Virus record (IMG/VR): IMGVR_UViG_3300047560_001314
DNA length: 50,019 bases
Origin: a virus
Lineage: Duplodnaviria; Heunggongvirae; Uroviricota; Caudoviricetes
Direction: 5' to 3' (one strand)
In this document: positions 7,033 to 28,243 of the stretch, piece after piece
Layout: the number at the start of each line of letters is the position of its first letter
Numbering within the stretch: position 1 is the stretch's first letter
Program-made: the position numbers and the translations under genes
Notes under the pieces: model-generated
Seen by the model: the letters and a program-made list of their open reading frames with translations, nothing else
Databases searched by the model: none
Told to the model about the DNA's origin: nothing

Positions 7033-7157
7033 TGGCTAAAGTAAAGACAACAGACGAACAACTTCGTGAAACAGGGATTGCAAAACTTATTGCAGTTACA
7101 GGAATCACAGAAGCAGAATTAAGAGCATTGGGGATTACATCAGATGGCAACAATTAA
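7032..7157 (+). CDS. 41-aa hypothetical protein (MAKVKTTDEQLRETGIAKLIAVTGITEAELRALGITSDGNN)
   Basis: Manual translation; TAATG coupling. Confidence 0.6.
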   Translation: MAKVKTTDEQLRETGIAKLIAVTGITEAELRALGITSDGNN

Positions 7158-7794
7158 TTCAGACGGCAAAGTAGCATATATTTATAATCAGTCTAACGAT
7201 ACTTGGTATGCAATTAGTGGTGCAGTAAACACTAATGCTCCATATACTTGGACAGCCGATCAAACATTCTCTTCCGATGTAACATTTGATACAGTTGCAA
7301 CAGCAAAGGCTGGAGTAAATAATTTTCAAAATCCTATTGCAAGAGATACTGTTCTAACTTCTCCAACAAATGGACTTGTGTGTTTTGTTAGACAAGAAAA
7401 TGATGGAACAGTCATTAATCAAATTCAGTATTACCACAATGGTGAGTGGAGAAACTCTTTCGACTCAATGACCCCAGTAGACATCACTGCTGATTATACA
7501 ATTACAAAGAGTGATGCTGGAAAGACATTATTTATTACATCTTCGAGTCCAGTTACGATTACAATTCCTGCAAACAGTACAACAGCATTTGCAAAAAATC
7601 AAAAAATTGAGTTTATCCGAAATGGATCTGGAACAGTTACCTTTGCTGGAGAAGTTACAGTAGTAGGTCAGCCTTCTCCAGTTACAATTAATAGCAAGTT
7701 TTCAAACAAAAAAATTGCTGCACAGTATTCTGGTGCGGTACTTACTAAAAAAGATACAAATACCTGGCTACTCATTGGTGATTTGACGGCGTAG
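7144..7794 (+). CDS. Short fibre protein with C-terminal 'W..(I/Y)GDLTA' domain
   Basis: C-terminal ~90 aa visibly homologous to the C-terminus of 15876..17576. Confidence 0.75.
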   Translation: MATINSDGKVAYIYNQSNDTWYAISGAVNTNAPYTWTADQTFSSDVTFDTVATAKAGVNNFQNPIARDTVLTSPTNGLVCFVRQENDGTVINQIQYYHNGEWRNSFDSMTPVDITADYTITKSDAGKTLFITSSSPVTITIPANSTTAFAKNQKIEFIRNGSGTVTFAGEVTVVGQPSPVTINSKFSNKKIAAQYSGAVLTKKDTNTWLLIGDLTA

Positions 7795-7801
7795 GTTTGA
7801 G

Positions 7802-9208
7802 ATGCTAAATTTTGGGTTCTCGGCATCAAAGGGTATGGTAAGGGTACCAGACCTTTCAGGATTATCAAAAGAAGATGCTATTCTAGCAATTGCAGCAGCA
7901 AGTCTGATATATGTTGACGGAGGCTCTACAGGAACAAGTAATTCTTCTTTGGATAATATAGTTGCTTCACAACTACCAAATGCAGATGAACTTGTTGATT
8001 ATGAAACCGATGTAACATTTATTTACTATGATTATGTTGGTGTCACACCAGTAACTCCAGTTACCCCAGTTACACCTGTTACACCTGTTACTCCAGTAAC
8101 TCCTGCAACTACTGTATATTGGTCGACAGGCTGTTGTAGCACAGCAAACACTCAAGTAACAGGAACAAGCAATGTAAGTCTTGCAAATGCACAAGACAAC
8201 ATGGACTCATTTTGTGTTACAGGGACAATATCTAACATTCAGACTGGATCTTACACAGGCACATCAAATATACCGACGCTAGACTGTTCAGTTCAAGTTA
8301 CACCAGTCACTCCAGTAGACACTACACCAAATTGGGTTGAAAGTTATAGCGAGTACCGTGCAGCATGCTGTGGAGTTGTTACAATCTATGTAGATAATAA
8401 CCCAAATTCAGCAACCTACAATACAGAAAAATACAATCCTTGTTCAAATGGATGGACATACAACGATCCATGTCCAGTTACTCCAGTTACACCAGTAACT
8501 CCTGTAACTCCAGTTACGCCTACACCAGTTTGTACTCCAACAACATATACAGAAAATAGAATTTGTAATGGCATCTCTACTCCAGTAACAATTACTGTGG
8601 CAGCAGACTGTACAGAAACTTACGATTGTCCGCCTGTATCAGTTACTCCAGTTACACCAGTAACTCCTGTAACTCCAGTTACGCCTACGCCAGTTTGTAC
8701 TCCAACAACTTACACAGAGAACAGAATTTGTAATGGAACATCTACATCTGTTACAATTACTGTAGCAGCAGATTGTTCTGAGACATGGGATTGCCCACCA
8801 GCACCTGTAACTCCTGCAGTAACACCTGTAACTCCTGCAGTAACACCTGTAACTCCTGCAGTAACACCTGTAACTCCTGCAGTAACACCTGTAACACCAT
8901 GTACTCCAAATGTTTCAAGTTATAATGAATATAGAGCAGCATGCGGAACTACTGTAACTATTTATGTTGACTCTTGTGGAAATGAGACATATACTTGTCC
9001 TGTAACTCCAGCAGTAACTCCAGCAGTAACTCCAGCAGTAACTCCAGCAGTAACTCCAGCAGTAACTCCAGCAGTAACTCCAGCAGTTACACCTCCATCC
9101 TGTACAGTTGGTGCTATTTGTGAAACTGCTACAAATCCAGAAAATTGCATTGTTTTCTACACCTACGACAGTTCCTGCCAGTGTGTACAGGCATCAACCT
9201 ATTGCTAG
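7802..9208 (+). CDS. PASTA-domain, VTP-repeat, Cys-rich protein (mucin-like putative virion surface protein)
   Basis: N-terminal VPDLSGLS...VASQLPNA...V PASTA pattern; VTP/VTPA tandem repeats; duplicated Cys modules. Confidence 0.75.
   Translation: MLNFGFSASKGMVRVPDLSGLSKEDAILAIAAASLIYVDGGSTGTSNSSLDNIVASQLPNADELVDYETDVTFIYYDYVGVTPVTPVTPVTPVTPVTPVTPATTVYWSTGCCSTANTQVTGTSNVSLANAQDNMDSFCVTGTISNIQTGSYTGTSNIPTLDCSVQVTPVTPVDTTPNWVESYSEYRAACCGVVTIYVDNNPNSATYNTEKYNPCSNGWTYNDPCPVTPVTPVTPVTPVTPTPVCTPTTYTENRICNGISTPVTITVAADCTETYDCPPVSVTPVTPVTPVTPVTPTPVCTPTTYTENRICNGTSTSVTITVAADCSETWDCPPAPVTPAVTPVTPAVTPVTPAVTPVTPAVTPVTPCTPNVSSYNEYRAACGTTVTIYVDSCGNETYTCPVTPAVTPAVTPAVTPAVTPAVTPAVTPAVTPPSCTVGAICETATNPENCIVFYTYDSSCQCVQASTYC
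8804..8887 (+). repeat. 21-bp tandem repeat x4 (PVTPAVT)
   Basis: CCTGTAACTCCTGCAGTAACA, four perfect copies. Confidence 0.95.
9002..9085 (+). repeat. 12-bp tandem repeat x7 (VTPA)
   Basis: GTAACTCCAGCA, seven perfect copies. Confidence 0.95.
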
Positions 9209-9244
9209 TTTGAATATGATATACTTTATAAAAAGGAGAAAAAA

Positions 9245-9448
9245 ATGCCAATTGTAAAATTTGCGGTAGTTGTTGGAAATGATGTTGCTGGTACAGTATC
9301 ATTTGATGATTCTAATAACGGTGAAACTGCTCAGAGATTTATTGCTGCATATAGGTCAAACCCAGTAATGGTAGAAACATCCAATCAGGATGTTATGCAT
9401 GGATGGACATGGGACGGAACTAACTTTATTGAGCCACAGGGTGCATAA
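9245..9448 (+). CDS. 67-aa protein, possible fibre assembly/accessory factor
   Basis: AAGGAG RBS; ends GWTWDGTNFIEP, a pattern seen in small fibre-adjacent proteins. Confidence 0.7.
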   Translation: MPIVKFAVVVGNDVAGTVSFDDSNNGETAQRFIAAYRSNPVMVETSNQDVMHGWTWDGTNFIEPQGA

Positions 9449-9681
9449 TGTCTGCAACCCCTTGGGAACAGTATAAGAAAAATCTTGGAGAAACAAGACC
9501 TTGGGATGTGGTTAACCCTAATACAGAGTGGGTTGACGATGCAAAGTCACTAGAAAGATTTAGCATATGTCAGGCTTGCCCAGAATTTGTTAAACTAACA
9601 ACCCAGTGCAAGAAGTGTGGGTGCTTTATGAAAATAAAAACAAAGTTAGAAAAAGCAACTTGCCCAATAGGAAAATGGTAA
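9448..9681 (+). CDS. Cys-rich small protein (DUF6171-like)
   Basis: CQACPEF...CKKCGCFMKIK...CPIGKW; paralog of 2578..2772. Confidence 0.8.
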   Translation: MSATPWEQYKKNLGETRPWDVVNPNTEWVDDAKSLERFSICQACPEFVKLTTQCKKCGCFMKIKTKLEKATCPIGKW

Positions 9682-10277
9682 TGAATAAAAAAGAACTGGC
9701 TCCAGGTATAGTGGTATATTCTGACGTAATAGATGAATATAAGACCTTGGTTCAAGATATTGAAGAAGGGGCCCTGAGTGCACAAAAGCAATGGGTTCAA
9801 TCTTCCATAAGGGGTGCAGACGGCGTAAAGGTTGATACAGAATATAGAGACACGCAATCAATAGGAGTTTCTTATACACCATCTCCTATAGAAGATTTTT
9901 CTACAATGGATCAAGCATTTAATGTAACTCTCTCTAACATGTTTTTATTGGGTTTTGGTCCAGCAGAGGCAGACTATAAGGCAGAGTACCGATTTGATAC
10001 AACCTGGCATGATCAGTACAGCATATTAAAATATGGCATAGGCCAAAAGTTTGTTAATCACATTGATGATCACACAGAGTACCACAGAAGAATGTCATTA
10101 GTTTATTATATTAACGATGACTACCTTGGTGGAGAGATACTATTTCCAAGATTTGATATATCATATAAGCCTAAAGCAAACGAACTCCTAATATTCCCAT
10201 CAGGGTATACCTATAATCACTCAGTCCTTCCAGTAACTGAAGGAATTCGATATGCGGTAGTAAGTTGGTTAAGATGA
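9681..10277 (+). CDS. 2OG-Fe(II) oxygenase, prolyl-4-hydroxylase-like
   Basis: HID...YINDDYLGGEILFP...H...RY motifs; start moved to the TAATG-coupled ATG 9681. Confidence 0.9.
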   Translation: MNKKELAPGIVVYSDVIDEYKTLVQDIEEGALSAQKQWVQSSIRGADGVKVDTEYRDTQSIGVSYTPSPIEDFSTMDQAFNVTLSNMFLLGFGPAEADYKAEYRFDTTWHDQYSILKYGIGQKFVNHIDDHTEYHRRMSLVYYINDDYLGGEILFPRFDISYKPKANELLIFPSGYTYNHSVLPVTEGIRYAVVSWLR

Positions 10278-10849
10278 CCATAGATATGAAGATGGTAGAG
10301 CAAGCAATTGCTGAAAACAGAATTCATATATTTAAAAACCCATTTCCAAGCCTTCCATCTTTAGACACATTGTTATCAATGGTATCTCAATATGTAGATG
10401 AAGACCTTGAAAGATTTCCAGAGAGGTCCTATCTCTTAAGTGATTTTGTTGAAGGCGAATCCTCTGACATGAGATTAAAGTGTAGGTTTTGGTCAAGAAT
10501 GGCCTTTCAACTTTTTGACCCACAGGACCCATATCTTAAAATTATTCCAGAACTTGCGCCAGTGACCGAGTGGGGGCTTTCGCAGTACCCAGCAAATATC
10601 TATGATGGAAACTTTTGCCTGATATCACTTATGAAAAATCGAGGGGTTGTTGGAAGCAAGCACAGAGATTATGTAGATCAGTTCCAGTGGGTTGTTAAGG
10701 GTGAGATGATCTGGCGTACTGGTGAAAATCTTGAAAACGAGTATCATGTTGTAGAGGGTGACTTTATATTTGTTCCTAAAAATTTGGCCCATGAAGTAGA
10801 GACTGTCAAAGCCCCTAGAGCAGCCATTAATTTAATTTTGAGAAACTAA
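10274..10849 (+). CDS. JmjC/cupin-4-like 2OG oxygenase
   Basis: HRDYVDQFQWVVKGEMIW...GDFIFVPKNLAHEV; ATGA overlap. Confidence 0.8.
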   Translation: MTIDMKMVEQAIAENRIHIFKNPFPSLPSLDTLLSMVSQYVDEDLERFPERSYLLSDFVEGESSDMRLKCRFWSRMAFQLFDPQDPYLKIIPELAPVTEWGLSQYPANIYDGNFCLISLMKNRGVVGSKHRDYVDQFQWVVKGEMIWRTGENLENEYHVVEGDFIFVPKNLAHEVETVKAPRAAINLILRN

Positions 10850-10850
10850 A

Positions 10851-10884
10851 AAGCACCTACAAGAACTTAGCCTTATAGGTGCTT
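10851..10884. terminator. Bidirectional terminator between convergent genes
   Basis: AAGCACCTACAAG / CTTATAGGTGCTT stem with A- and T-rich flanks. Confidence 0.75.
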
Positions 10885-10896
10885 CTTAGTATTTTT

Positions 10897-12075: not shown

Positions 12076-12093
12076 TAGTGATATAATAATCTA

Positions 12094-12719: not shown

Positions 12720-12751
12720 TAGTTTAATTAAATGTGTGTTATAATTACCAC

Positions 12752-15875: not shown

Positions 15876-17576
15876 ATGGCAACTAGAATGCAACAGCGCA
15901 GAGGTACCGCAGCACAGTGGACATCTGCAAACCCTATCCTAGCATCAGGAGAAATTGGTTTTGAAAGCGATACTAGCAAGTTTAAGATTGGTGACGGAGT
16001 TAACCACTGGGCAGACCTTACATACTTTGCCTCTGCAGCAGAAATTGCAGACCTTATTGATGGAGCACCAGAATTACTTAATACTCTCAATGAGTTAGCA
16101 GCAGCACTCGGTGATGACCCAGCATTTATTACAACTGTTGCAGACAACCTTTCTGCTCATTCTTCAGACACAACTTCTGTACACGGAATTGCAAATACAG
16201 CACTTCTTGCTACATTGCAGAATGTAGATGACAAGATTGCTACCGCAGCAGATGCCCTAGAACAATATGCAGATGGTGCAGTAAGCACACACAGCCTTCT
16301 AACAGGCAATGTACACGGTGTAGCAGATTTCTCACTACTTGCAACAACTTCCAATGTAACTGCTCACACAGACCTTACTACAAATGTTCACGGTATCGCA
16401 GATACATCAGCACTAGCACTTACTGCAGACTTAACAGCCCACTCTACCGCTACAACTAGCGTACACGGTATTGCTAATACTGCAGAACTTGTAACATTTT
16501 CAGATATGACAGACGCTATCGCAGCAGCATCAACAGATCAGTCTGCAGTTGCAGGTGTAGGTATTGACTGGAACACAGTTACACAGGCATTCGACATCGA
16601 TTCAACAGTTGCAACAAAGACATATGCAGATGATGCAGTATCTACACACAACTCTAATAGCACAAATGTTCATGGTATTGCAGATACATCATTGCTTGCC
16701 ACTACTCTTAATGTTTCAACAGCAAAGCAAGAAGCAATTGATGCAGCAGCAGTAGCATCAGAAAATTATGCAGATGGACTTGCAGCAAACTATGATGTAG
16801 CAGGAGCAGCAGCATCTGCTGTTTCAACTCATAACTCAGACACCACAAGTGTCCACGGTATTGCAGATACATCAAAGTTAGTAGCAAAAGATGCTGCCTC
16901 TACAACACTTGATGGAGACTTAGTAATTTCTGGAGACCTAACAGTCACTGGTACAACAACAACTGTTTTAGCACAAGATCTTGTTGTTTCTGACCCACTT
17001 ATCTACATTGGTGAGGGCAACTCAGCAAACCTTGTTGATATTGGAGTAGTTGGTAACTTCAATGACGGCACATATCAGCACTCAGGAGTTGTTCGTGATG
17101 CTTCTGCTGGAAAGTGGAAAATCTTTAAGGGTGTAACAGATGAACCAACAACAACAGTTAACTTTGCACAAGGATCACTTGACGATCTTGCAGTAAATAA
17201 TGTTGAGGTTGCTGGAGTAGTATTTACAGATGGAACACAGTCAAAGGAAGGTGTACCTTCACGCACACCTATTGTTCAAAAGACAGCAGGTTACACACTA
17301 TCATCACTTACTGAAAGAGATTCTTTGATTGAGATGTCTTCATCTTCAGGAATTACACTTACAATTCCTACAGATGCAACACTAAACTTCCCAATCGGAA
17401 CATCAATTGACATTCTTCAAACTTCAACAGGTCAGGTAACAATTGCAGCAGCAACACCTGGCACTACAACAGTAAATGCAACACCTGGTTTGAAGTTAAG
17501 AACACAGTGGTCTTCTGCAACTCTTTTCAAGAGAGCAGCAAATACTTGGGTTGTCTACGGCGATCTAACAGCGTAA
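15876..17576 (+). CDS. Tail fibre with Mtd/hyaluronidase-type N-domain, six H-x7-HG repeats and C-terminal GDLTA domain
   Basis: RRGTAAQWTSANPILASGEIGFESDTSKFKIGDG N-motif; VHGIA(D/N)T repeats. Confidence 0.85.
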   Translation: MATRMQQRRGTAAQWTSANPILASGEIGFESDTSKFKIGDGVNHWADLTYFASAAEIADLIDGAPELLNTLNELAAALGDDPAFITTVADNLSAHSSDTTSVHGIANTALLATLQNVDDKIATAADALEQYADGAVSTHSLLTGNVHGVADFSLLATTSNVTAHTDLTTNVHGIADTSALALTADLTAHSTATTSVHGIANTAELVTFSDMTDAIAAASTDQSAVAGVGIDWNTVTQAFDIDSTVATKTYADDAVSTHNSNSTNVHGIADTSLLATTLNVSTAKQEAIDAAAVASENYADGLAANYDVAGAAASAVSTHNSDTTSVHGIADTSKLVAKDAASTTLDGDLVISGDLTVTGTTTTVLAQDLVVSDPLIYIGEGNSANLVDIGVVGNFNDGTYQHSGVVRDASAGKWKIFKGVTDEPTTTVNFAQGSLDDLAVNNVEVAGVVFTDGTQSKEGVPSRTPIVQKTAGYTLSSLTERDSLIEMSSSSGITLTIPTDATLNFPIGTSIDILQTSTGQVTIAAATPGTTTVNATPGLKLRTQWSSATLFKRAANTWVVYGDLTA

Positions 17577-17607
17577 TAAAAATTTAATAAGAAAATAGGA
17601 GATAACT

Positions 17608-18891
17608 ATGGCAGCAGGTAAGAAATCAGGTAGAAAGTCCCAAGCGTCAAATGACTTCTTGGAGCCACTAGCACCAACAGGCGTAACTGGAACAGATGTT
17701 GGAACAGGAAGAGCCTACAATGATGGCGCTGTCTCTGTATCCTTTTCATTACCAGCACTTTCGCCTGCTGCTACATCCTATACAGTCACAGCAAGCACAG
17801 GACAAACAGCAACTGGATCATCTTCTCCAATTACTGTAACTGGTCTTGCTTCTACATCAACACCAACATTTACAGTAACAGCAACAAATGCTGCAGGAAC
17901 CTCTCAGGCTTCTTCTGCATCTGCTGCAGTAACAGTAACAACAGTTCCAGCAACACCATCAGCCCCAACCGCTACCGCAGGAGTTGACCAAGATACTGTA
18001 TCATGGACAGCATCAGCAAATGGTGGAAAGGCTATTACTGGCTACACCTGGGCATCATCTGACTCAAAAACTGGTACTACGACATCTACATCTGTTGTTG
18101 TAACACAAGAGGGTAACACTTCTCAGACATATACAGTTTATGCAACAAATGCTAATGGAAACTCAGCAACTTCTCCAGCATCAGCATCAGTTACTACAAC
18201 TCCACCATTCTTCCCACCGTTCTTCCCACCGTACTTCCCATACTTCCCATTTTTCCCACCGTTCTTCCCACCATTCTTTCCGTTCTTCCCACCGTTCTTC
18301 CCACCGTACTTCCCATACTTCCCATTTTTCCCACCGTTCTTCCCACCATTCTTTCCGTTCTTCCCACCGTTCTTCCCAAGTTTTATCATCCCTTGGTTTG
18401 GCCCACCGTGTGTTGAGGAAAACACACTGATTGATACACCTAACGGACAGATTCCTGTAAAGAATCTACAAGTTGGAGATGTAATCTGGTCAACACCTAT
18501 CAGTGAGTTGGATCCTTCAGAACCAGATTGGCAAAAGTATGCCTGGTCTGCAAACCAACTAACAACTGGTGAACTAGTTGAGACAACAATCACAGCAATG
18601 GAAGTTGTTGAAGAGTCAGATATCATTTGCTTCAATGGAAACTCTGATATCAGAATCACTTTCACACAGCCAATATTTGTGAAGACAGTCAACAATCAGT
18701 ACAAGATTAAAGAGGCATACTACGTAGAAGTTGGCGAAAGTCTCATAGTTCTAGACTCAACTGGTCAAAAGGTTGAAGTTCCTGTAACAAGTATTGAGCA
18801 CTTCACAGATGAAGTAGTAAATGTATATCAACTATCATGCGAGCCTTATGACTGGTTCTTTGTAAGTGGTATACTAGTACACAACAAGTAA
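17608..18891 (+). CDS. FnIII x2 - (Pro/Phe/Tyr)59 - Hint (intein-like) domain protein
   Basis: FnIII patterns (PLAPTGVT..., SYTVTA, YTVYATNANG); P/F/Y tract; Hint from CVEENTLIDT...LQVGD to VYQL...FFVSGILVHNK. Confidence 0.85.
   Translation: MAAGKKSGRKSQASNDFLEPLAPTGVTGTDVGTGRAYNDGAVSVSFSLPALSPAATSYTVTASTGQTATGSSSPITVTGLASTSTPTFTVTATNAAGTSQASSASAAVTVTTVPATPSAPTATAGVDQDTVSWTASANGGKAITGYTWASSDSKTGTTTSTSVVVTQEGNTSQTYTVYATNANGNSATSPASASVTTTPPFFPPFFPPYFPYFPFFPPFFPPFFPFFPPFFPPYFPYFPFFPPFFPPFFPFFPPFFPSFIIPWFGPPCVEENTLIDTPNGQIPVKNLQVGDVIWSTPISELDPSEPDWQKYAWSANQLTTGELVETTITAMEVVEESDIICFNGNSDIRITFTQPIFVKTVNNQYKIKEAYYVEVGESLIVLDSTGQKVEVPVTSIEHFTDEVVNVYQLSCEPYDWFFVSGILVHNK
18202..18378 (+). repeat. 59-codon Pro/Phe/Tyr-only tract with a 75-bp perfect duplication
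   Basis: Unit FFPPFFPPYFPYFPFFPPFFPPFFP at 18208-18282 and 18283-18357, plus a 21-bp partial. Confidence 0.95.
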
Positions 18892-18913: not shown

Positions 18914-19582
18914 ATGTCAGTCGAAAACCACGACGGTATACTCCCTGCCTCATCTATAAGCAGAGAAATACTTATGCCAGGAATGGTACTTTATAAGAAT
19001 ATTTTTCCTGCGGGTATTAAAGTTATAGAAGATCTTGAGGGTGTATTATCTGACGGAAGTAACTATAAGTGGAGCCAGGCCATGGTTGGTAATAGACAAA
19101 GGGTTCCTGAATATAGAGACTGCCTAGATTTTAAATTTAAAAAATCTACAATTGTAGGAACGGATGAAAAATCTGAAACAATTAGACAGTCTTGGCAGTA
19201 CCTACACGATCAAATGAATTCTGCTTTGCAAGACTATTGCACACTCTATCCAATGGAGCCATTAGAATACTGGGAATCAATAAACTTTATTAAGTATTAT
19301 CCAGGCAATCACTTTGAGTCCCATGCAGACGACGGTGCATCCTACAAGGCTGTAGTTTCATTAGTTGGATATTTGAACGATGACTACGAAGGTGGAGAAA
19401 TTTCTTTCCCAGCACATGGAATTACGATCAAGCCAGAAGCAGGAGATCTAGTTATTTTTCCATCAAACTATATGTTTATGCATAAAGCAATGCCAGTAAT
19501 TAGTGGAGTAAAATACTCTATTGTTACTATGTTAGATTATAATGAAAAATTTCACACACAGAGGTTTTATTATGGAAAGTAA
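18914..19582 (+). CDS. 2OG-Fe(II) oxygenase, P4H-like (array 1)
   Basis: HADDG, YLNDDYEGGE, H...KY. Confidence 0.9.
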   Translation: MSVENHDGILPASSISREILMPGMVLYKNIFPAGIKVIEDLEGVLSDGSNYKWSQAMVGNRQRVPEYRDCLDFKFKKSTIVGTDEKSETIRQSWQYLHDQMNSALQDYCTLYPMEPLEYWESINFIKYYPGNHFESHADDGASYKAVVSLVGYLNDDYEGGEISFPAHGITIKPEAGDLVIFPSNYMFMHKAMPVISGVKYSIVTMLDYNEKFHTQRFYYGK

Positions 19583-20117
19583 AGAGTTGGCTTTAGGGAT
19601 AAGACTGTACAGTGGAGTAGAATTACCATGTAAGGAAACTATCTTAGGTTTGGATTTTGAAGGGGCTACAAAGGAAAGCGTTATTGTCAATGATGAATTC
19701 AGAGCAGACTATAGTTCCAGGATCACGCTATCAATTGATGTACCATATATTAATAAAGATAACAATCAGTTTACAGATATTTTTAGACAAACCTTTGACC
19801 CAGTAGAACAAGACTATATGTCTATACATGGAATATCCTTAAAATCTCATAACCCATATAAAATATTAAAGTATGAGGTCGGTGGTAAATTTGATACACA
19901 CATGGACGATGGTGGGGGAAACTTTAGAAGAGTTTCTACTGTATATTATTTAAATGATAACTATGAGGGTGGAGAACTATGCTTCCCACAATTTGGCATA
20001 GAACTAAAGCCAAAGGCGGGAGATATGGTTGTTTTTCCATCATCCTATGTATATTCACATAGTGTCAAACCAGTAACATCAGGAAATAGATTTTCTATTG
20101 CAAGTTGGCTAAAATGA
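19572..20117 (+). CDS. 2OG-Fe(II) oxygenase, P4H-like (array 2)
   Basis: HMDDG, YLNDNYEGGE, H...RF; start moved to ATG 19572. Confidence 0.9.
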   Translation: MESKELALGIRLYSGVELPCKETILGLDFEGATKESVIVNDEFRADYSSRITLSIDVPYINKDNNQFTDIFRQTFDPVEQDYMSIHGISLKSHNPYKILKYEVGGKFDTHMDDGGGNFRRVSTVYYLNDNYEGGELCFPQFGIELKPKAGDMVVFPSSYVYSHSVKPVTSGNRFSIASWLK

Positions 20118-20608
20118 TAGAGACAGTTAGAACCTTTGCCAATGGCGAAGACCTCATTGATATAAAAGAAAAGATTGATAAGGTTCTTCCATTAAATAAA
20201 TTTAATGATGTTCCGAACTGGTCCACCGATGCTATTAGCGCAGATCAGATCTATAGAATACAAAAGTTTGTTGGCAGAGTAGTCGAAGAAACAGGTGTTA
20301 TTTTGCAGAGCCAGGTTATTGATCGATTTAATAATACAAACAAAGTGTTTCCATACATGATACAACTTATTAAGATAGATAGAAATACCTTTAGTACAGA
20401 TATTATTGTAGAGGATCAAATATGTCAAACCATAACACCACTCAAAAATGAGTGTAAGACATATATTTTAATTAATAACTCTGGAAATGTTGTAGTTCCA
20501 GATCTAGTCGATGGAGACTATGCTATAGCAGCATACTGGACCGAATACAGAGATCTAAGATATAAAAACTGGTTTATAGGAAAGTATTTTCAGCGATATG
20601 TTGGATAG
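20114..20608 (+). CDS. Hypothetical protein, possibly a degenerate oxygenase-fold protein
   Basis: ATGA coupling; oxygenase-like N-terminal layout and terminal AIAAYW, but no HxD or H ligands. Confidence 0.6.
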   Translation: MIETVRTFANGEDLIDIKEKIDKVLPLNKFNDVPNWSTDAISADQIYRIQKFVGRVVEETGVILQSQVIDRFNNTNKVFPYMIQLIKIDRNTFSTDIIVEDQICQTITPLKNECKTYILINNSGNVVVPDLVDGDYAIAAYWTEYRDLRYKNWFIGKYFQRYVG

Positions 20609-21068
20609 ATTCGTCATTGAAGATTTTTTATCTCAAGAAGATTGTCATAGTCTTATTTCTGCATGCAATGAAAATGACTGGGTTGATAAAGGCGGAAACT
20701 CAAAGGTATTTATTCAAAAGACAACAAGACACGATATTATAAAAAAAATACATAAAGGCCTAAGTGAAATGTTTGACGATCACTACCACATACAGTTAAT
20801 AAGAATGGTTCATAAAACAGACTCAGAGTCTTTTTGGGAAGAGCATACAGATAGGTCTGACCACAAGGTAACAAGAGACATTGTTTATGGAGTTATAATA
20901 TATCTAAATGATGATTTTTCTGGTGGTACTTTAGACTATAGCGATATGTCTATTACCCCAAAAACAGGAATGCTTGTCTGCCATCCTGGAGACATGCTTC
21001 ACAAAGTATCAAAGGTAGAAGATGGTCAAAGATATACGCTAACTACATTTATTAGGAGTAAGAGTTGA
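20598..21068 (+). CDS. 2OG-Fe(II) oxygenase, P4H-like (array 3)
   Basis: HTD, YLNDDFSGG, H...RY. Confidence 0.9.
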   Translation: MLDRFVIEDFLSQEDCHSLISACNENDWVDKGGNSKVFIQKTTRHDIIKKIHKGLSEMFDDHYHIQLIRMVHKTDSESFWEEHTDRSDHKVTRDIVYGVIIYLNDDFSGGTLDYSDMSITPKTGMLVCHPGDMLHKVSKVEDGQRYTLTTFIRSKS

Positions 21069-21844
21069 GCACTGATATTAAATCTCCAAAGGTGAGGATA
21101 TGTGAAAACTTCATATCAACTGAAGTCTGTGACTTTTTAATAAAATATGCAGAATCCAATGACATTTGGTCACAATTTAATAATTCTGTTAAAAAGCATA
21201 ATTTTAGTGACGAGCATGATCACATGTCAGCATTGAAGCAATGGGATAACAGAAGGGTTGATATTAATGAATTGTATGCACAAGGCATGGGAAAAAGAAA
21301 AGAGTTGTTTGATATAGTTCTTCCACTACAGTATCGGATGCATGACGAGGTTGTTGATTTTTTAAAGCCAGATTTTGATTTGCACAGCGAACTATGGGAA
21401 ATTGTTAGATGGAAAGAGGGAAACTTTCAGGAGCCACATGTAGACCACATTGATCCAGATTTTGACTTATCAACGATAGACCTTGATTCAGTACCAGAAG
21501 AGTGCAAATATTTTTTTGAGGAAAGAAATATTGAGAAGTACAAAAAATTATTTACTAACAAGGCCTTTACCTCTATTATTTACCTTAATGATGATTATCA
21601 GGGTGGAGAACTTTATTTTCCACAGCACAACTCATTTCAAATAAAGCCAAAAAAGGGAACAATGCTAATCTTCAGCGGTACTATTGATAATATGCATGGC
21701 ATTAAAGAAGTAACTGGTGGAACTAGATATACACATGTTACATTTTGGTCTAATAATATATCTAAGTCTAGCAAGATTGCTTTTGATAAAAAGGTTAATC
21801 GTTTAGTGGTAGACGACAACCATAAGCCCGTAATAGATAGTTAA
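21065..21844 (+). CDS. 2OG-Fe(II) oxygenase, P4H-like with insertion (array 4)
   Basis: HVD, YLNDDYQGGE, H...RY; TTG start overlapping the previous stop. Confidence 0.9.
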   Translation: MSTDIKSPKVRICENFISTEVCDFLIKYAESNDIWSQFNNSVKKHNFSDEHDHMSALKQWDNRRVDINELYAQGMGKRKELFDIVLPLQYRMHDEVVDFLKPDFDLHSELWEIVRWKEGNFQEPHVDHIDPDFDLSTIDLDSVPEECKYFFEERNIEKYKKLFTNKAFTSIIYLNDDYQGGELYFPQHNSFQIKPKKGTMLIFSGTIDNMHGIKEVTGGTRYTHVTFWSNNISKSSKIAFDKKVNRLVVDDNHKPVIDS

Positions 21845-21846
21845 AA

Positions 21847-21875
21847 TTGACAAAATGCATAGATCATGCTATACT
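21847..21875 (+). promoter_or_regulatory. Near-consensus sigma70 promoter TTGACA-N17-TATACT inside the oxygenase array
   Basis: TTGACAaaatgcatagatcatgcTATACT with extended -10 TG. Confidence 0.85.
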
Positions 21876-21895
21876 TTACTAAAGGGAGAAAACCT

Positions 21896-22663
21896 GTGAA
21901 CAATATAATTTCTTTTATGTCTAATAGGCCTTGGCTTAAAAAAGACAGCAAGTCGGCACCAACACCAATGATTAAATCAATTCCAGATTGGTACAGAGAG
22001 GCAGATCGATTTGCTAAAATGCCTAATGGAGAGTTTTACAAAGCACCTAAAGAAATATGTCCGTATCCAAAAGAGGGTACGACAGATGACTATGGAAAGA
22101 TCCCGACTTGGAAGGCCTGCCCATCAGTGTTTGATATTATGGGCACAGGATACTCCCTTAATCTACCATGCGATGTTGAGTTTATACAAAAAGATGAAAA
22201 TACTTTGATTGTAAATATTGAAGATAGACAGTATAAAGATTTTGTTACACCAAGACCACCAATGCCACAGTTTAAGCATCCAATGGGATATCATGAAAAT
22301 CACTTTGCTTGGTTTTATGATTGGGGTATTAAAACTCCAGAAGGCTATAGCAGTTTGATTACTCAGCCATTTAATAGGTTTGAATTACCATTTTTAAACA
22401 CCTCTGGTATAATTGACACAGACAGGGTTCATTTTCCAGGATCTTTACCATTCTTTATTGTTAAAGGCTGGTCAGGTGTGCTTAAGGCTGGAACTCCTTT
22501 TGCACAGGTTCTTCCCTTCAAAAGAGAAGATTGGTCATCTGATTTATCAATAGAGAATCCAATGAATATGTATACACGCAATAAAGAGAATTCTGAGTTT
22601 TATAGAGTCCCAGATGGAGGGGTTTATAAAAACAAGGTATGGAGCAGAAGGAGATACGAATAA
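21896..22663 (+). CDS. dUTPase-fold-like protein (DUF6065-related)
   Basis: TWKACPSVFD...GY, KTPEGYS, SGIIDTD, KAGTPFAQV; GTG start after GGGAG. Confidence 0.6.
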   Translation: MNNIISFMSNRPWLKKDSKSAPTPMIKSIPDWYREADRFAKMPNGEFYKAPKEICPYPKEGTTDDYGKIPTWKACPSVFDIMGTGYSLNLPCDVEFIQKDENTLIVNIEDRQYKDFVTPRPPMPQFKHPMGYHENHFAWFYDWGIKTPEGYSSLITQPFNRFELPFLNTSGIIDTDRVHFPGSLPFFIVKGWSGVLKAGTPFAQVLPFKREDWSSDLSIENPMNMYTRNKENSEFYRVPDGGVYKNKVWSRRRYE

Positions 22664-23391
22664 TGACAGTATATGACGAAAATGCAAATCCCTGGTTTAC
22701 AAAAGATAGATCAGAGACAGCATCTAATAGAGTTGAGCCAAGACAATTAAAAGATAATATTGTTGCTGAAAATCTTGGACTTGGGCTACATGTGTATCAT
22801 AAGACCTTCTCAGTAGAAGATGCAGATAGATATATCAATACGCTTGAGTCTAATTTGTCTGGGGACAAGCAATATAAGTGGTCAGAGGCAAAAGTAACAA
22901 ACTCAGATGCTCCAATCAAGAAGGCTAGAGATGCTGTAGATTTTAAATACAAGCAAGAAAATCTTGGTCCAAGAAATGAAAATAATGCAGAACTATTAGA
23001 TCTACATGAGGAAATTTATCAAAAGTTAAAATACTGCATAGATGACTATGCCCAGTACTGGGGAATAAATGTTGTTTATTATGAAGCCTTCAACTTTGTA
23101 AAATATGAGGGCCAGGGAACACACTTTAATATCCATGCTGATCATGGTCCAGCATACAACTGTACAGTATCTGCAGTAATCTATATTAATGACGACTATG
23201 AAGGTGGAGACTTAAAATTCCCACGACTAGATAATCTGGTCTATAAGCCAAAGGCAGGAGATATTGCTGTATTCCCATCTAACTATATTTATGAGCATGC
23301 TTCTCTTCCAATGGAGTCTGGAACAAAGTATTGCGTAGTAGTTATGACAGATATTAATGAACTAGGTCACCAACAAGTTAGGAGCATGTAA
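22663..23391 (+). CDS. 2OG-Fe(II) oxygenase, P4H-like (array 5)
   Basis: HADHG, YINDDYEGGD, H...KY. Confidence 0.9.
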   Translation: MTVYDENANPWFTKDRSETASNRVEPRQLKDNIVAENLGLGLHVYHKTFSVEDADRYINTLESNLSGDKQYKWSEAKVTNSDAPIKKARDAVDFKYKQENLGPRNENNAELLDLHEEIYQKLKYCIDDYAQYWGINVVYYEAFNFVKYEGQGTHFNIHADHGPAYNCTVSAVIYINDDYEGGDLKFPRLDNLVYKPKAGDIAVFPSNYIYEHASLPMESGTKYCVVVMTDINELGHQQVRSM

Positions 23392-24062
23392 TGCAAACAT
23401 GGACAGAAAAAATTGATCACGGCAATGGTATATTTTGCTACAAGAATGTGATCAAAAAAGATATTGATGTAATCAACAGACTTGAGTCAAGTTTAGGGTC
23501 AGTTGCTGGATACGGAGAACTGTCTGACGAAGGAAAGCAGTACCATTGGCATCCAGCCTATGTCGGTTATAAGCAACTTATGCCAGACTACCGTGACTGT
23601 GTAGATTTTAAGTTTAAGAAGACCGATATAGAGTTAGATAAAAGCCAAACATCGCTAGACTTGCAGGCACTTTGGCAAGACCTATACGATGTAAAGTTGC
23701 CTGTTGTACAAGATTATTCTAAGATGTACAACATTAATAATCTTCAGTATTGGGAAGCATTTAACTTTATTAAGTATGGTCCAGGTCAGCACTTTATGGA
23801 GCATCACGACCATGGCTTTTCTTATAACTGTACAGTTTCTTTGGTAGGATATCCAAATGATAACTATGAAGGCGGAGAGTTATTCTTTAGACTTCAGGGG
23901 CTAAAGATTAAGCCAGAGGCAGGGGATCTTTTTGTATTTCCTTCAAACTACATGTATCCACACCAAGCAATGCCAGTACATTCTGGGGTAAAGTATTCAA
24001 TTGTGACAATGCTAGATTACAATAAGAAGTACCATACTCCAGAGATGTATCAGGAGCAGTAA
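23391..24062 (+). CDS. 2OG-Fe(II) oxygenase, P4H-like (array 6)
   Basis: HHDHG, YPNDNYEGGE, H...KY; close paralog of 18914..19582. Confidence 0.9.
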   Translation: MQTWTEKIDHGNGIFCYKNVIKKDIDVINRLESSLGSVAGYGELSDEGKQYHWHPAYVGYKQLMPDYRDCVDFKFKKTDIELDKSQTSLDLQALWQDLYDVKLPVVQDYSKMYNINNLQYWEAFNFIKYGPGQHFMEHHDHGFSYNCTVSLVGYPNDNYEGGELFFRLQGLKIKPEAGDLFVFPSNYMYPHQAMPVHSGVKYSIVTMLDYNKKYHTPEMYQEQ

Positions 24063-24778
24063 TGTTCAATATAAAAGTGGAAAAGACACCTGACTCACTA
24101 TTCAATATTGAGCCAATGTCTATAAAAAGAGACTGGATGGATCTAACATCAGAAAACCATGCCTATCGTTGTTTTCCAGTTACTCAGTCTAATGTGATAG
24201 GATGGAATCTTTCCTGTACAGAGGATGTATCTTTTGAGTGGAATGGAGTTAATGACCAGTCTCCAGATACTGTAAAGATATTCAGCCCAGCGGGATCTTA
24301 TTCTGGCAGAGGTCAATCATCTATAAGTCTTAATACAGGTCTTTATTTCAGAACTGATCAAGATGTTAGTATCTGGACTATTAACCCAGTTAACTATTTT
24401 AGTAATGAGTTTGAAACGATGTCCTCTCTAATGACAACATCTTTTTACGATAATCCACTTCCGTTAGCACTAAAAGCAAAGGCTGCAAATCGTGTTGTTA
24501 CCATTAAAGCAGGAACACCGCTTGCAACAATTATTCCAATATCTCTAACAAATCTTAACAATACAGTTATCGAGATTAATAGATACATGGATCCAGATAG
24601 AAAAAGACAAGAGGCAAACATGTCTTATGGTCAAGCATCACAAGTTGTAAACTCTTCTGGTGAATGGACAGACTGGTACAGAAATGCTGTTAATGAAAAG
24701 GGTGAGTCTTTAGGTACCCACGAAGTAAAAACCCTAAAACTAGGAGTAAAAAATAATATGAACGGTGATATAATATGA
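24062..24778 (+). CDS. DUF6065-like protein (dUTPase-like fold)
   Basis: RDWMD...HAYRCFPVTQSNVIGW, KAGTPLATIIP; family name recalled, not searched. Confidence 0.65.
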   Translation: MFNIKVEKTPDSLFNIEPMSIKRDWMDLTSENHAYRCFPVTQSNVIGWNLSCTEDVSFEWNGVNDQSPDTVKIFSPAGSYSGRGQSSISLNTGLYFRTDQDVSIWTINPVNYFSNEFETMSSLMTTSFYDNPLPLALKAKAANRVVTIKAGTPLATIIPISLTNLNNTVIEINRYMDPDRKRQEANMSYGQASQVVNSSGEWTDWYRNAVNEKGESLGTHEVKTLKLGVKNNMNGDII

Positions 24779-25461
24779 GCATGGAGCAAAATAAAGATCA
24801 ATATTCAGTAGTTCAGAGAACGCCATCCCTTACGCCTTCTGGCTGGTTTGGTGACAGCAAAGATATGATCGTAGAGTTAGAAAATTTCATGACTCCTGAA
24901 GAAATTGAGTTCTTGGAAAAGGCTGCAAAGTCTATTACAATTTGGGATGTTACTCAAAGCCATGTTAATGAAAATGGAACAGTTGTCTACGACTCAGATT
25001 ATTGGAAAGACAGAGTTGCAACAAGTCCAACACTAGACAAGAACGATCCTGCAGTTGCGCCCGTGATTGCTGGTTTATTTCAAAGATTAAAGCCAATTGT
25101 CGAAGAGTTCTATAAAGTAGAAGTGGTTCCAACTGGAACAACTATTGTAAGATGGCTTCCTGGTCAATTCCAAAGACCACACGCAGACAAAGAGTTACAT
25201 GAGGGTCCAGATGCTGGAATGCCTAATGATTTCCCACATTATGACTTATCAAGTTTATTCTATTTAAATGATGACTACGAGGGTGGAGAGTTATACTTTC
25301 CATTGCAGGATGTCAAGTTCAAGCCTAAAAAGGGTGCAGCGTATTTCTTCCCAGGAGATAAAAATTATATCCATGGGGTCACTGAGATAAAGAGTGGAAT
25401 TAGATATACTTGCCCATTTTTTTGGGAGATTACAAAGCATACAGGAGAGAGACAGCCATGA
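24775..25461 (+). CDS. 2OG-Fe(II) oxygenase, P4H-like (array 7); start may be 24781
   Basis: HAD, YLNDDYEGGE, H...RY. Confidence 0.9.
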   Translation: MSMEQNKDQYSVVQRTPSLTPSGWFGDSKDMIVELENFMTPEEIEFLEKAAKSITIWDVTQSHVNENGTVVYDSDYWKDRVATSPTLDKNDPAVAPVIAGLFQRLKPIVEEFYKVEVVPTGTTIVRWLPGQFQRPHADKELHEGPDAGMPNDFPHYDLSSLFYLNDDYEGGELYFPLQDVKFKPKKGAAYFFPGDKNYIHGVTEIKSGIRYTCPFFWEITKHTGERQP

Positions 25462-26204
25462 ATCTAAGCAATAAGAAGAGAATAACAAAAGATATTGTTG
25501 TTTATGAAAACTTTTTAGATGCAGAAACATCTGCTAAGATTATTAAGGTTTTAGATAAGCATGCAGAATTAGGTGGTATCTCATGGATGCCAATTTCATT
25601 TTATGAATCATACTCTTCTGTATTGCCACAAGATGATGATGCAGAGGTAATCGCTGAAGGATTGCCAGCAACAATCTTCTCCGATATCGAAAATATAATG
25701 CCAGAGGCAGTTGCTTCAGTTCACGATCTTGATCCAAAAACAATTTGCAAGATTGGCTATCATACACAAAAGTGGGAGCCAGGAGCATATGCAAGAAAGC
25801 ATTCAGACAATACAGATGACAAGGGTAACTCTGGTGCATTTACTAGAAGTAGGTATGCAGGATTTTTGTATCTTAATGATGACTTTGAGGGTGGCCTTTT
25901 AAGATTCCCAGATAATGATATTGAAATCAAGCCACAGGTGGGAATGCTTGCAGTATTCGACGGTGGATTTAACAATATGCATGAAGTTACACTAATAACA
26001 AAGGGTATTCGATACACGATTGGTTCTTTCTGGGATGATAGAGAAGAGTCTGCCTATCCACAGGAACTAAGAGATGCTTGGGCTGAAGAGATGAAGCAAA
26101 CTAGAGCACAACAAGAAATTGAAAGAGCAGAGTGGCAAGGACTGCTTAAAGAAGGTTATAAGTTGGACGATAAAGGCAATAAGTATAGGGTAGAGGATCT
26201 ATAA
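25458..26204 (+). CDS. 2OG-Fe(II) oxygenase, P4H-like (array 8)
   Basis: HSD, YLNDDFEGG, H...RY; ATGA coupling. Confidence 0.9.
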   Translation: MNLSNKKRITKDIVVYENFLDAETSAKIIKVLDKHAELGGISWMPISFYESYSSVLPQDDDAEVIAEGLPATIFSDIENIMPEAVASVHDLDPKTICKIGYHTQKWEPGAYARKHSDNTDDKGNSGAFTRSRYAGFLYLNDDFEGGLLRFPDNDIEIKPQVGMLAVFDGGFNNMHEVTLITKGIRYTIGSFWDDREESAYPQELRDAWAEEMKQTRAQQEIERAEWQGLLKEGYKLDDKGNKYRVEDL

Positions 26205-26867
26205 ATGGAAGTTTTTTTGAAAAAAGAATTAGAGGCCAGCGGTTTCAAACTTGATGTACTACATGACCATGTTGTAGTCGTAGAAGACTTTTTGTCAAAA
26301 ACAGAACTTGATTTATTGCTAGATATTATTGCAACAACAAAAGAAGAAGATTGGTCTATCGAGTACAAGAGAAGCCTTGCTGAATTTTGCATGGAAAAGT
26401 TTGGTAGGGATGATGTTGACAATCTTGTTGCTGAGGGTAAGTATGAGATTACCAAAGGTTGGGATGATAAAAACCTAGACATTGGTAAGCGAGATGTTAG
26501 CAGAACACTTCAAAAGAGACTTGGGGATATTCTTGCTTTGGCAGACAATACACTAGAACTTGCTGGATTTGCAACTCTTCAAAGAATGCAGTCTGGAGTT
26601 CAATTGAAGTCTCATACTGATCAACACACCGATCCATCAATTAGATATGCTGCAATAGTCTATCTTAATGATGACTATGTAGATGGAACACTGTTCTTTA
26701 AAAATATAGAGAACTCTGATTTAAGACCAAAGCCAGGTTCATTGCTTATATTTCCAGGAAATGAAGAATATGAGCATGGTGTAAGGCATGTTGGTGAAGG
26801 CCCAATCAGATATGTGGTTGTTGGCTTTATCAAGGTTAAAGATTTTTACAAGAATAATAAATACTAG
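26205..26867 (+). CDS. 2OG-Fe(II) oxygenase, P4H-like (array 9)
   Basis: HTD, YLNDDYVDG, H...RY. Confidence 0.9.
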   Translation: MEVFLKKELEASGFKLDVLHDHVVVVEDFLSKTELDLLLDIIATTKEEDWSIEYKRSLAEFCMEKFGRDDVDNLVAEGKYEITKGWDDKNLDIGKRDVSRTLQKRLGDILALADNTLELAGFATLQRMQSGVQLKSHTDQHTDPSIRYAAIVYLNDDYVDGTLFFKNIENSDLRPKPGSLLIFPGNEEYEHGVRHVGEGPIRYVVVGFIKVKDFYKNNKY

Positions 26868-26876
26868 GGGGATAAA

Positions 26877-27581
26877 ATGAATAGACAAATTCTAGAAGAA
26901 AAGGTTTATTACTACGAAGATGGAGTAAAAGACTTTGAGCAGTTGATGAAGACTATCGATGAACTTGATAGCCTTGATGCAGATACTGGAACATCCTCTT
27001 GGCATGACTGGACGGCTTCAAATGACAAAGATTTTATTTATGGATCAACAAAGACATTTGACATAAATCAAATTAATAAGTTGGATGAGCCGTATAAGTC
27101 AAAGATGGCATTTGTTTATAAGACAATCATGGATTCATTTTATGATGTTTCTAAGGATTATGCAACTGCACTTGGTGATAATGATGAGCCAAGACTTTTC
27201 CCAACCTTTAATATTAAAAAGTATAAAAAAGGAACATCTATGGGTGCTCACTTTGATCAACTAGATGGAGACCAAACTCTGAGATATTCTTTAGTTATGT
27301 ACCTAAATGATGATTTTGATGGTGGAGAGATTTCTTTCACTATGTCTGACTATGCTGGTATTCTAAATAAGCAAACACCGCATCCAGACTATGATCACCC
27401 AGATAATGCTAAGTTAATGGATTTTTCAATCAAGCCAAAAGCAGGCAGCATTATTATTTTCCCATCGTCAGCACCATATCATCACACTGCTCACCTTGTA
27501 AAGAGCAAGTTTAAGTATATGGTTCCAGGACACTGGATTCATAATAATATGGATTTCTATCGTTCCTCTGGCAGCATGTAG
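26877..27581 (+). CDS. 2OG-Fe(II) oxygenase, P4H-like (array 10)
   Basis: HFD, YLNDDFDGGE, H...KY. Confidence 0.9.
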   Translation: MNRQILEEKVYYYEDGVKDFEQLMKTIDELDSLDADTGTSSWHDWTASNDKDFIYGSTKTFDINQINKLDEPYKSKMAFVYKTIMDSFYDVSKDYATALGDNDEPRLFPTFNIKKYKKGTSMGAHFDQLDGDQTLRYSLVMYLNDDFDGGEISFTMSDYAGILNKQTPHPDYDHPDNAKLMDFSIKPKAGSIIIFPSSAPYHHTAHLVKSKFKYMVPGHWIHNNMDFYRSSGSM

Positions 27582-28243
27582 TGAAAACAGCAATCGTAAC
27601 TGGCGCCAGCAAAGGCGTTGGTTTAGCAACTGTAAAACTTTTATCTGAAAGTGGATATCGGGTTATAGCAGTCTCACGCAATCTGTCTAAGGTTTCTGAA
27701 CTAGTTTCTGATAATGTTGAAGTTTATCAAATGGACATTGCAAATGAAAAAGAGATAGAGAAATTTTATGAAAAGTATCGGGGCATAACTTTGGATCTTT
27801 TAGTAAATAATGCGGGCGGTGGATCAGCACCAACAAACATTATTAGTGAAACAATGGATAATTTTAAGCGGGCCTACGAGATTAATGTCTCTGGTCCAAT
27901 GTATCTATCACAACTATTTGTTTCAGCAATGCAGAAGTCAGAATCTCCAACAATTATATTTATTAGTTCTTTGGGTGGAAAGTTTGCATATCGTGGTGGA
28001 GGAAACTACACTAATGCCAAAAGAGGACAGATGGCTCTAGTTGACACTATGAGGTTAGAGTTTCCAGATTATGGTATCAAGGTAACAGAGATATGTCCTG
28101 GAACAATAGACACACAAGAACAAAAAAGAAATGCTGCATTAAATGCAGAAGACTTAGCAGAATCAATTCGTTGGGTTGCAAGTTTGCCAAGTCATGTTAA
28201 CATTAACCATATAGAATTAAACCATATTCTAAGTGGTAAATAG
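27581..28243 (+). CDS. Short-chain dehydrogenase/reductase (classical SDR, YdfG-like)
   Basis: TGASKGVG, NNAG, YxxxK (YTNAK), ICPG; GTG start overlapping TAG. Confidence 0.9.
   Translation: MKTAIVTGASKGVGLATVKLLSESGYRVIAVSRNLSKVSELVSDNVEVYQMDIANEKEIEKFYEKYRGITLDLLVNNAGGGSAPTNIISETMDNFKRAYEINVSGPMYLSQLFVSAMQKSESPTIIFISSLGGKFAYRGGGNYTNAKRGQMALVDTMRLEFPDYGIKVTEICPGTIDTQEQKRNAALNAEDLAESIRWVASLPSHVNINHIELNHILSGK

Follow-up and report, generated by a model that had tools for sequence, protein, structure and literature searches.

A freshwater tailed phage carries an array of putative prolyl hydroxylase genes beside a proline-rich, Hint-terminated repeat protein

Introduction

Viral prolyl 4-hydroxylases (P4Hs) with proline-rich substrates are a known kind of enzyme. 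As recounted in PMC3634087 (citing Eriksson 1999), the P4H of PBCV-1 hydroxylates virus-encoded (Pro-Ala-Pro-Lys)n repeat peptides in vitro. A tailed-phage case was not found described. Here we analyze a candidate in a 50,019-nucleotide (nt) stretch of the IMG/VR virus record IMGVR_UViG_3300047560_001314 (Caudoviricetes), hereafter called the window. In the window, a gene for a protein with FN3-like domains, a (PPFF)n repeat and a C-terminal Hint-like domain is directly followed by a block that includes ten genes related to 2-oxoglutarate (2OG)/Fe(II) oxygenases. An eleventh such gene, ox0, stands behind a second proline-rich repeat protein. The repeat proteins are candidate substrates of these enzymes.

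The window resembles PBCV-1 in that a virus-encoded monomeric P4H-type 2OG oxygenase and open reading frames (ORFs) for proline-rich repeats occur in one genome, and a structural model of the window's enzyme ox4 matches PBCV-1 vCPH (5c5t; template modelling [TM] score 0.54-0.73). Unlike PBCV-1, a eukaryotic giant virus with a single enzyme, the window belongs to a tailed phage with up to 11 divergent paralogs, most of them in one block. Its repeats are aromatic (PPFF) or of the VTP type, the putative substrate ends in a Hint domain, and the hydroxylase activity is putative.

Bacterial and algal P4Hs are similarly close. Like B. anthracis P4H, Cr-P4H-1 and Pseudomonas PPHD, the window's oxygenases contain an HxD...H triad, a Lys or Arg 2OG-binding residue and a YxNDDYxGGEL-type motif. 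This group provides the best sequence match (3itq/5hv0, E=5e-8) and is among the top fold matches. However, identity is only ~15-20% and the N-terminal halves differ. The known substrates of these P4Hs are collagen-like peptides, Ser-Pro or poly-Pro stretches and EF-Tu; PPFF repeats are not among them.

Since ~2010, aquatic phages have been known to bear many 2OG-Fe(II) oxygenase genes. T4-like cyanophages have up to 24 per genome, which were read via 2OG and nitrogen metabolism and whose function was stated to be uninvestigated (PMC3037559; PMC9602691). As in these phages, the window shows many divergent PF13640-family paralogs in an aquatic phage. In contrast to the scattered auxiliary metabolic genes described for cyanophages, those of the window, which is not of a cyanophage lineage, are packed into a single block behind the gene for a candidate substrate. 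The window and ~94 related loci offer an adjacent candidate substrate for such enzymes.

The Hint-like domain of the PPFF protein recalls the self-cleaving peptidase S74 (intramolecular chaperone) domains of phage tail fibres and bacterial intein-like (BIL)/Hint domains. The shared feature is a tail-associated protein with a C-terminal domain for which self-removal is expected, but Hint and S74 belong to different fold families.

A non-exhaustive literature search found no report of hydroxyproline in tailed-phage proteins or of Hint-terminated PPFF-type repeats. Should hydroxylation of the repeats be confirmed, no earlier hydroxyproline-type modification system would, as far as this search shows, be on record for virion-associated proteins of tailed phages, and the locus would illustrate how an array of paralogs diversifies around one repetitive substrate.

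Results and Discussion

Oxygenase genes accompany proline-rich repeats

An alignment of the Hint domain recovered 79+79 loci from IMG/VR. The test set consisted of 94 dereplicated Hint-terminated repeat genes, each with at least 3 kb of downstream sequence. An oxygenase gene was located within 3 kb of 43 of the 54 proline-rich repeat genes, but of only 5 of the 40 proline-poor ones (odds ratio 27, Fisher p=6e-11). Across the 94 genes, oxygenase number was correlated with proline content (Spearman, 0.70). Arrays of at least four oxygenases were found with most PPFF-type tracts (20/26) and with few of the other tracts (4/68). Among the five proline-poor genes with an oxygenase, at least one (L052) still has, immediately ahead of Hint, a short stretch that resembles PPFF.

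The kind of enzyme also differed with the repeat. In relatives, ox4-, ox5-, ox6-, ox7- and ox9-type genes were detected only beside PPFF, PPPF or PPGFF tracts, and ox0-type genes beside non-aromatic proline repeats (TP, VTP, NPV). The enzyme orthogroups track the repeat motif.

A clean natural experiment is provided by relatives that differ at the same slot. In all eight close relatives (ox2 identity, 77-84%), the PPFF-Hint gene lies directly upstream of 9-11 oxygenases. In the syntenic relatives G001 and G002, for which whole contigs were reconstructed, the slot after fibre B holds an FN3-(AFG)n-Hint gene with no proline in its repeat, and the entire array is missing. There, the Hint gene and the ribonucleotide reductase (RNR) gene are separated only by a homolog of u21866, one of the accessory genes of the window's array. 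Thus, the same slot contains either PPFF with an array or AFG without one.

In G005, five oxygenases follow a PPFF/PPSFC repeat protein without a Hint domain. L116 is a case of modular exchange: compared with the window, its Hint domain (~25% identical) is much less conserved than its FN3+PPFF part, and its oxygenases are 58-86% identical. It is therefore the repeat-bearing part, and no particular Hint domain, with which the array moves. A minimal PPFF cassette, present in L098, consists of the repeat-Hint gene, an ox4-like gene, an ox5-like gene and two DUF6065-family genes. Taken together, the loci range over repeat types that naturally do or do not have enzymes beside them, and they supply one minimal cassette (the repeat-Hint gene with the ox4-like and ox5-like genes) that could be co-expressed.

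The oxygenases resemble protein prolyl hydroxylases

The block at 18914-28243 comprises nine oxygenase genes above the PF13640 cut-off, one truncated paralog, an unknown 167-amino-acid (aa) gene, two DUF6065-superfamily genes and a short-chain dehydrogenase/reductase (SDR) gene. From the Hint gene through the SDR gene, all genes are co-directional on the + strand and show operon-like packing with gaps of -52 to +22 nt; the RNR gene follows after 99 nt. The overlapping genes ox1 (18914-19582) and ox2 (19542-20117) open the block and, like ox6, ox7, ox8 and ox9 (24775..27581), were assigned by Pfam, paralog BLAST and motifs. A truncated paralog (20598-21068), known only by BLAST to its neighbours, precedes ox3 (21065-21844; PF13640 and motifs). 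The PF13640 genes ox4 (22639-23391) and ox5 (23391-24062) are the core pair of every PPFF-type array.

PF13640 scores of 35.8-71.1 bits against a cut-off of 27 were obtained for 10 of the 11 genes, namely for nine in 18914-27581 and for ox0 (9606..10277, + strand). The HxD...H triad and a basic 2OG-binding residue ~7-10 residues past the distal His are present in 11/11 (in ox0, H152-x-D, H205 and R215). The basic residue is Lys in ox1, ox4, ox5 and ox9 and Arg in the others, and the YxNDDYxGGEL-type motif is kept in ten. The genes are mutually 25-53% identical by BLAST. Judged by their sequences, they are old paralogs, and all 11 look catalytically intact.

In sequence comparisons, ox2 aligned near full length with the B. 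anthracis collagen-type P4H (3itq/5hv0), followed by PiuC-type hydroxylases and P3H1. NCBIfam gave weak PKHD-type matches far below threshold. Fold evidence covers ox4, for which an AlphaFold2 model was built from 30 homologs (predicted local distance difference test [pLDDT] 86). Its structural matches were almost all protein prolyl hydroxylases (E ~1e-9 to 1e-10, TM 0.6-0.73), including PHD2 with HIF peptides, Chlamydomonas P4H with (Ser-Pro)5, PBCV-1 vCPH, PPHD with EF-Tu and BaP4H. In both sequence and predicted fold, the enzymes resemble the peptidyl-prolyl 4-hydroxylase type. A complex prediction of ox4 with the PPFF tract (residues 188-266), run with no controls, gave scores of 0.00 and is evidence neither way.

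The fibre region contains two cassettes of like design

The locus is a tail-fibre region with two cassettes, each consisting of a fibre gene, a proline-rich repeat gene and one or more PF13640 oxygenase genes. An earlier note on this DNA, made from the letters alone, had described this repeated architecture, and all genes it named exist as + strand ORFs where it had placed them. Fibre A (7144..7794) and fibre B (15876..17576), the latter with an Mtd_N N-terminus, share a C-terminal domain of ~140 aa that ends in GDLTA in both (30% identity, E=4e-13); the note had described both fibres as ending in such a domain. Its description of ten P4H-like genes with accessory genes also held, the tenth being the truncated paralog.

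In module 1, fibre A is followed by a PASTA protein with tandem (VTP)n/(VTPA)n repeats (7802..9208), which agrees with the note's assignment (PF03793, 25.2 bits, above cut-off). This protein contains duplicated Cys-rich modules and has no Hint domain in the window, whereas its orthologs in relatives end in one. Behind ox0 lies a cupin gene (10265..10849, + strand). The earlier note had paired a P4H-like enzyme with a JmjC protein at this position. The first half of this claim is sound. For the second, Pfam gave only a sub-threshold Cupin_2 match (26.3 bits vs a cut-off of 27.2), and a JmjC_2-type protein is possible as a lead from the ESM Atlas, in which the nearest clusters (score 0.96, viral) carry JmjC_2 in 66-98% of members. 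A PDB sequence search yielded no useful relative of the cupin. In relative G001 (L012 8991-10646), the cupin is fused behind an N-terminal region of ~360 aa, giving a total of 551 aa. Downstream of the PASTA/VTP gene and ahead of ox0, whose predicted start it overlaps, lies a 77-aa ORF with a DUF6171 match (window 9448-9681, E=4.5e-6). Module 1 is kept across relatives as a proline-rich repeat protein (VTP, TP, APV or PTAV; often Hint-ended) followed by an ox0-type or short oxygenase.

In module 2, fibre B is followed by the FN3x2-(PPFF)n-Hint protein (17608..18891, + strand), in which two FN3-like domains precede a P/F/Y tract of 59 residues and a Hint-like domain forms the C-terminus. The architecture proposed in the note was confirmed, although the Pfam matches to FN3 and Hint_2 were under the curated cut-offs. 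The PPFF repeat spans roughly nt 18187-18411. Its reading frame is genuine, since it is continuous with FN3 upstream and Hint downstream and since the aa repeat is kept in lineages whose Hint domains are <30% identical. Inside the tract, a perfect 75-bp unit occurs in 2.3 copies (window 18208-18378), and tract length differs among relatives. This points to a recently expanded, length-variable segment.

A collagen-like fibre protein (4624..5349, + strand) is encoded upstream of both modules. It was correctly recognized in the note (PF01391, 31.3 bits, above cut-off; PHROG tail fibre matches). It contains 14 G-X-Y triplets, with X-Pro-Gly in only two, and is a possible alternative substrate.

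Proposed hydroxylation of the adjacent repeats and alternative explanations

As the most likely mechanism, we propose that proline residues in repeat proteins of the phage itself would be hydroxylated by the oxygenases late in infection. The PPFF tract would be served by the ox4/ox5 core together with the other paralogs, and the VTP tract by ox0; divergent paralogs may cover different sequence contexts or different ring positions. Hydroxylation would stiffen or functionalise a polyproline-II-like appendage, presumably located on the virion. The Hint-like domain of the PPFF protein would probably remove itself by autoproteolysis or transfer the C-terminus of the repeat to an acceptor. We regard it as an evenly balanced proposition that at least some of the oxygenases hydroxylate the adjacent repeat proteins. 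The earlier note had put forward the same idea, which is favoured by the enzyme type, the covariation and the motif tracking.

Several observations weigh against it. The covariation that the note had suggested looking for is present in the raw data, but it did not reach significance under phylogenetic control. Among eight independent pairs from the Hint tree, the oxygenase trait differed in the same way as the repeat in 4.3, in the opposite way in 0.1 and not at all in 3.6. These contrasts are consistent in direction with the raw association, but the sign test, which is underpowered, was not significant (median p 0.125), and recombination blurs the Hint-domain tree. In addition, 11 proline-rich repeat genes (e.g., of the APPAD, VPQPVP and PFSPF types) have no oxygenase within 3 kb. 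Five such contigs were checked whole: two are without any PF13640 gene, and three carry one elsewhere. More distant phages, outside this phage family, have clusters of 3-4 oxygenases with no proline-rich low-complexity gene in the fetched flanks. The note had named such independent arrays as an argument against its own idea, and the enzyme family is therefore not restricted to repeat modification. The position of the array, between the fibre module and RNR, is a variable junction whose slot differs among relatives, and this stretch could be a variable island gathering accessory genes. The presence of an SDR and dUTPase-fold proteins in the block is also compatible with a small-molecule or nucleotide pathway. 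Finally, ten paralogs for one simple repeat exceed the need of any protein hydroxylation system known to us.

Some of these points would fit enzymes that act on host targets or metabolism (EF-Tu, ribosomal proteins or, as has been suggested for cyanophages, 2-oxoglutarate levels), their adjacency to the repeats reflecting the variable island only. The structural matches include PPHD-EF-Tu and the P4H of B. anthracis, which modifies EF-Tu, and the cyanophage literature ties such genes to 2OG/nitrogen signalling (PMC3037559; PMC9602691). The oxygenase clusters of distant phages and the variable slot argue in the same direction. However, action on the host leaves unexplained why an oxygenase accompanies so few of the proline-free and so many of the proline-rich repeats, why the orthogroups follow the repeat motif, and why the arrangement is seen again in module 1, a second site distant from RNR. 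We consider this explanation unlikely, though worth keeping in view.

The block could instead encode a small-molecule or nucleotide-modification pathway made up of the oxygenases, the SDR and the dUTPase-fold DUF6065 proteins beside RNR. In line with this, the block ends with the SDR, a dUTPase-like fold is had or shared by the two DUF6065-superfamily proteins, and u21866-like genes adjoin RNR even where there is no array, also in the haloarchaeal virus HF2. In addition, the nucleoside-pathway oxygenase PolD is among the lower structural matches of ox4. In contrast, protein prolyl hydroxylases give the best matches both in sequence and in fold. The nucleic-acid oxygenases AlkB and TET/JBP belong to other families, and Tet_JBP was seen only as one weak sub-threshold match. 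Moreover, such a pathway gives no reason for covariation with proline in the neighbouring repeat, and the SDR is confined to the larger arrays. Distinctly improbable is how we rate it.

That the enzymes modify phage structural proteins, but mainly the collagen-like fibre or the fibres instead of the adjacent repeats, is very unlikely: the collagen-like protein lies nearby and is kept in relatives, a collagen-type P4H is the solved enzyme nearest in sequence, and cultured jumbo phages have Hint-terminated tail proteins with proline-rich G-X-Y repeats, but the collagen-like tract offers just two X-Pro-Gly sites, the protein is also present in the array-less G001 and G002, and it is with the PPFF repeat, not with the collagen gene, that oxygenase number varies.

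Two extensions of the repeat hydroxylation idea were also contained in the earlier note. Priming of the repeats for glycosylation was not borne out, as profiles detected no GT1 or GT2 glycosyltransferase (GT) in the phage's own contig (G000), the complete relative G004 or G002; other GT families were not searched. Hydroxylation in Phe, Tyr or Thr contexts would be pure conjecture.

The Hint-like domain defines a wider class of repeat proteins

The Hint-like domain (18391-18888, + strand) starts at Cys267 (GPP/C) and ends in VHNK. Its Hint_2 match reached 21.8 bits vs a cut-off of 28.4 and covered block A only. When a profile of the domain was compared with the PDB, weak matches to the gp41-1 mini-intein and a BIL domain were obtained (E 0.01-0.02). 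The alignment shows Cys or Ser at the start, [ST]xxH in relatives, an invariant CEPxD motif and a terminal HN in the window's clade. Cys1, the candidate nucleophile, is present in this clade, and relatives have a Ser near the predicted domain start. Unlike in typical BIL/Hint domains, the block-B His is replaced in the window's clade (TFTQ), and the residue before Cys is Pro. Cleavage competence in this clade is therefore uncertain.

An exhaustive profile search for the domain returned 927 clusters at 50% identity, 262 of them at E<=1e-10. In 102 of 112 full-length representatives, the Hint domain is C-terminal, and about 80 of the 112 have an aromatic-rich, proline-rich or other low-complexity stretch ahead of it. 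In the Hint-bearing genes, which follow one plan, an FN3, PASTA or fibre display domain is combined with a low-complexity tract and a Hint domain at the C-terminus. Tracts of discrete types can be distinguished (PPFF, PPGFF, PPPF, AFG, GFxHY, FTPFG, PVIIAE, NPPPY, NPGPxF and APPAD). Whether or not they are hydroxylated, the aromatic repeat proteins that end in Hint make up a broad class of tail-associated phage proteins that has not been studied.

Proline-free aromatic repeats with a Hint domain, (GFxHY)n and (AFG)n, were observed in L071 (9311-10438), L068 (693-1787), L110 (9179-10507) and L028 (G001 16894-18471). They resemble FG-nucleoporin or His-rich structural repeats. The genes that follow them encode proteins of ~165-250 aa with no Pfam match, which could be other modifying enzymes. 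Among ten unannotated genes in the enzyme slot of non-PPFF and PPFF-variant loci, eight were without any Pfam match. The two exceptions, both in L116, have a glutathione-peroxidase domain and a weak sub-threshold match to TetR_C_42, respectively. The glutathione-peroxidase gene of L116 (15844-16617; PF00255, E=2.5e-8) is inserted in a PPFF-type oxygenase array.

Cultured relatives of the Hint domain occur in jumbo Erwinia and Dickeya phages and in phage NCTB, where the proteins have collagen-like G-X-Y repeats and are annotated as tail or virion structural proteins; the jumbo-phage homologs are listed as 'tail protein, contains intein domain'. Because of these annotations, the sequence relationship supports a tail-associated role of the Hint-terminated class. 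Dickeya phage AD1 gene AD1_108 (L195 5017-6456) and an NCTB gene (L196 4969-6489) encode proline-rich collagen-like G-X-Y repeats with a Hint domain distantly related to that of the window. In the tail-fibre cluster of phage NCTB, there are three such 'intein domain' genes. The cultured jumbo phages could be an experimental system for Hint processing.

A joint reading of these data, rather improbable as a whole, is that tailed phages carry this large set of clusters as an unrecognised class of fibre-associated appendages. In each, a display domain and a low-complexity tract rich in aromatic residues would be joined to a C-terminal Hint domain that removes itself, and each tract type (PPFF, PPGFF, AFG, GFxHY, FTPFG, NPPPY and others) would have its own modifying enzymes. 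The PPFF type, through up to 11 hydroxylases and the SDR, would become a heavily hydroxylated, extensin- or mussel-adhesive-like polymer attached covalently by Hint to the virion or the host envelope.

Source genome and host

The source of the window is a 71,023-base IMG/VR viral contig with an estimated completeness of 64%. All PF13640 matches of the whole contig lie inside the window. The GC content is 35-43%, and the window DNA is contained in freshwater metagenomes. The head module comprises portal, protease and major capsid protein, the latter being ~43% identical to its counterparts in large Streptomyces siphophages. No near relative was found among 50,697 deposited phage genomes, and megablast of the array against these records gave no match.

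Relative G004 is a complete genome of 113 kb with terminal repeats. It encodes a WhiB-family protein above the Pfam cut-off (G004:C1:90112-90285). Based on this protein and the PASTA domain in the window, the hosts of the phage group are probably freshwater Actinobacteria. A profile scan of genome contigs with the Hint domain yielded no host lead, returning only three short contigs of metagenome-assembled genomes from unrelated taxa; these are most likely mis-binned phage DNA.

Accessory genes of the block

Besides the oxygenases, the block encodes four further proteins, all on the + strand. The 167-aa protein (20105..20608) is kept within arrays, with orthologs in relatives, and had no Pfam match and no usable Atlas match. 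The SDR (27581..28243; PF00106, E=1.4e-40), which overlaps ox9 by 1 nt and closes the block, is present in larger arrays only.

The DUF6065 protein (24062..24778) was identified by PF19541 (90.3 bits, above cut-off). An iterated search merged it with u21866 (21866..22663), a distant member of the DUF6065 superfamily with no significant Pfam match of its own (DUF6065, E=0.064). The structural model of u21866 (pLDDT 88) is a dUTPase/dCTP-deaminase-like beta-barrel (Foldseek E=8e-4; VIA-align Z up to 9.3, with a sharp drop beyond that family), and its neighbours in the AlphaFold DB are uncharacterised proteins, then dUTPases. A literature search found no papers on DUF6065. Homologs of u21866 adjoin RNR in G001 and G002 and in the haloarchaeal tailed viruses HF1, HF2 (L197 4857-5741), HRTV and HCTV. 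Given the dUTPase-like fold and this adjacency to RNR, the superfamily may belong to nucleotide metabolism rather than to the repeat system. For the same reasons, DUF6065/u21866 was dropped as a candidate constant partner of Hint proteins.

A scan of 12.5-30.5 kb for promoters and terminators gave counts at or under the shuffled expectation, and no terminator-like site was seen in it between the Hint gene and ox1. The region's best sigma-70-like site, which matches 11/12 positions and has an extended -10 TG, lies inside the array directly before the u21866 gene (window 21847-21875).

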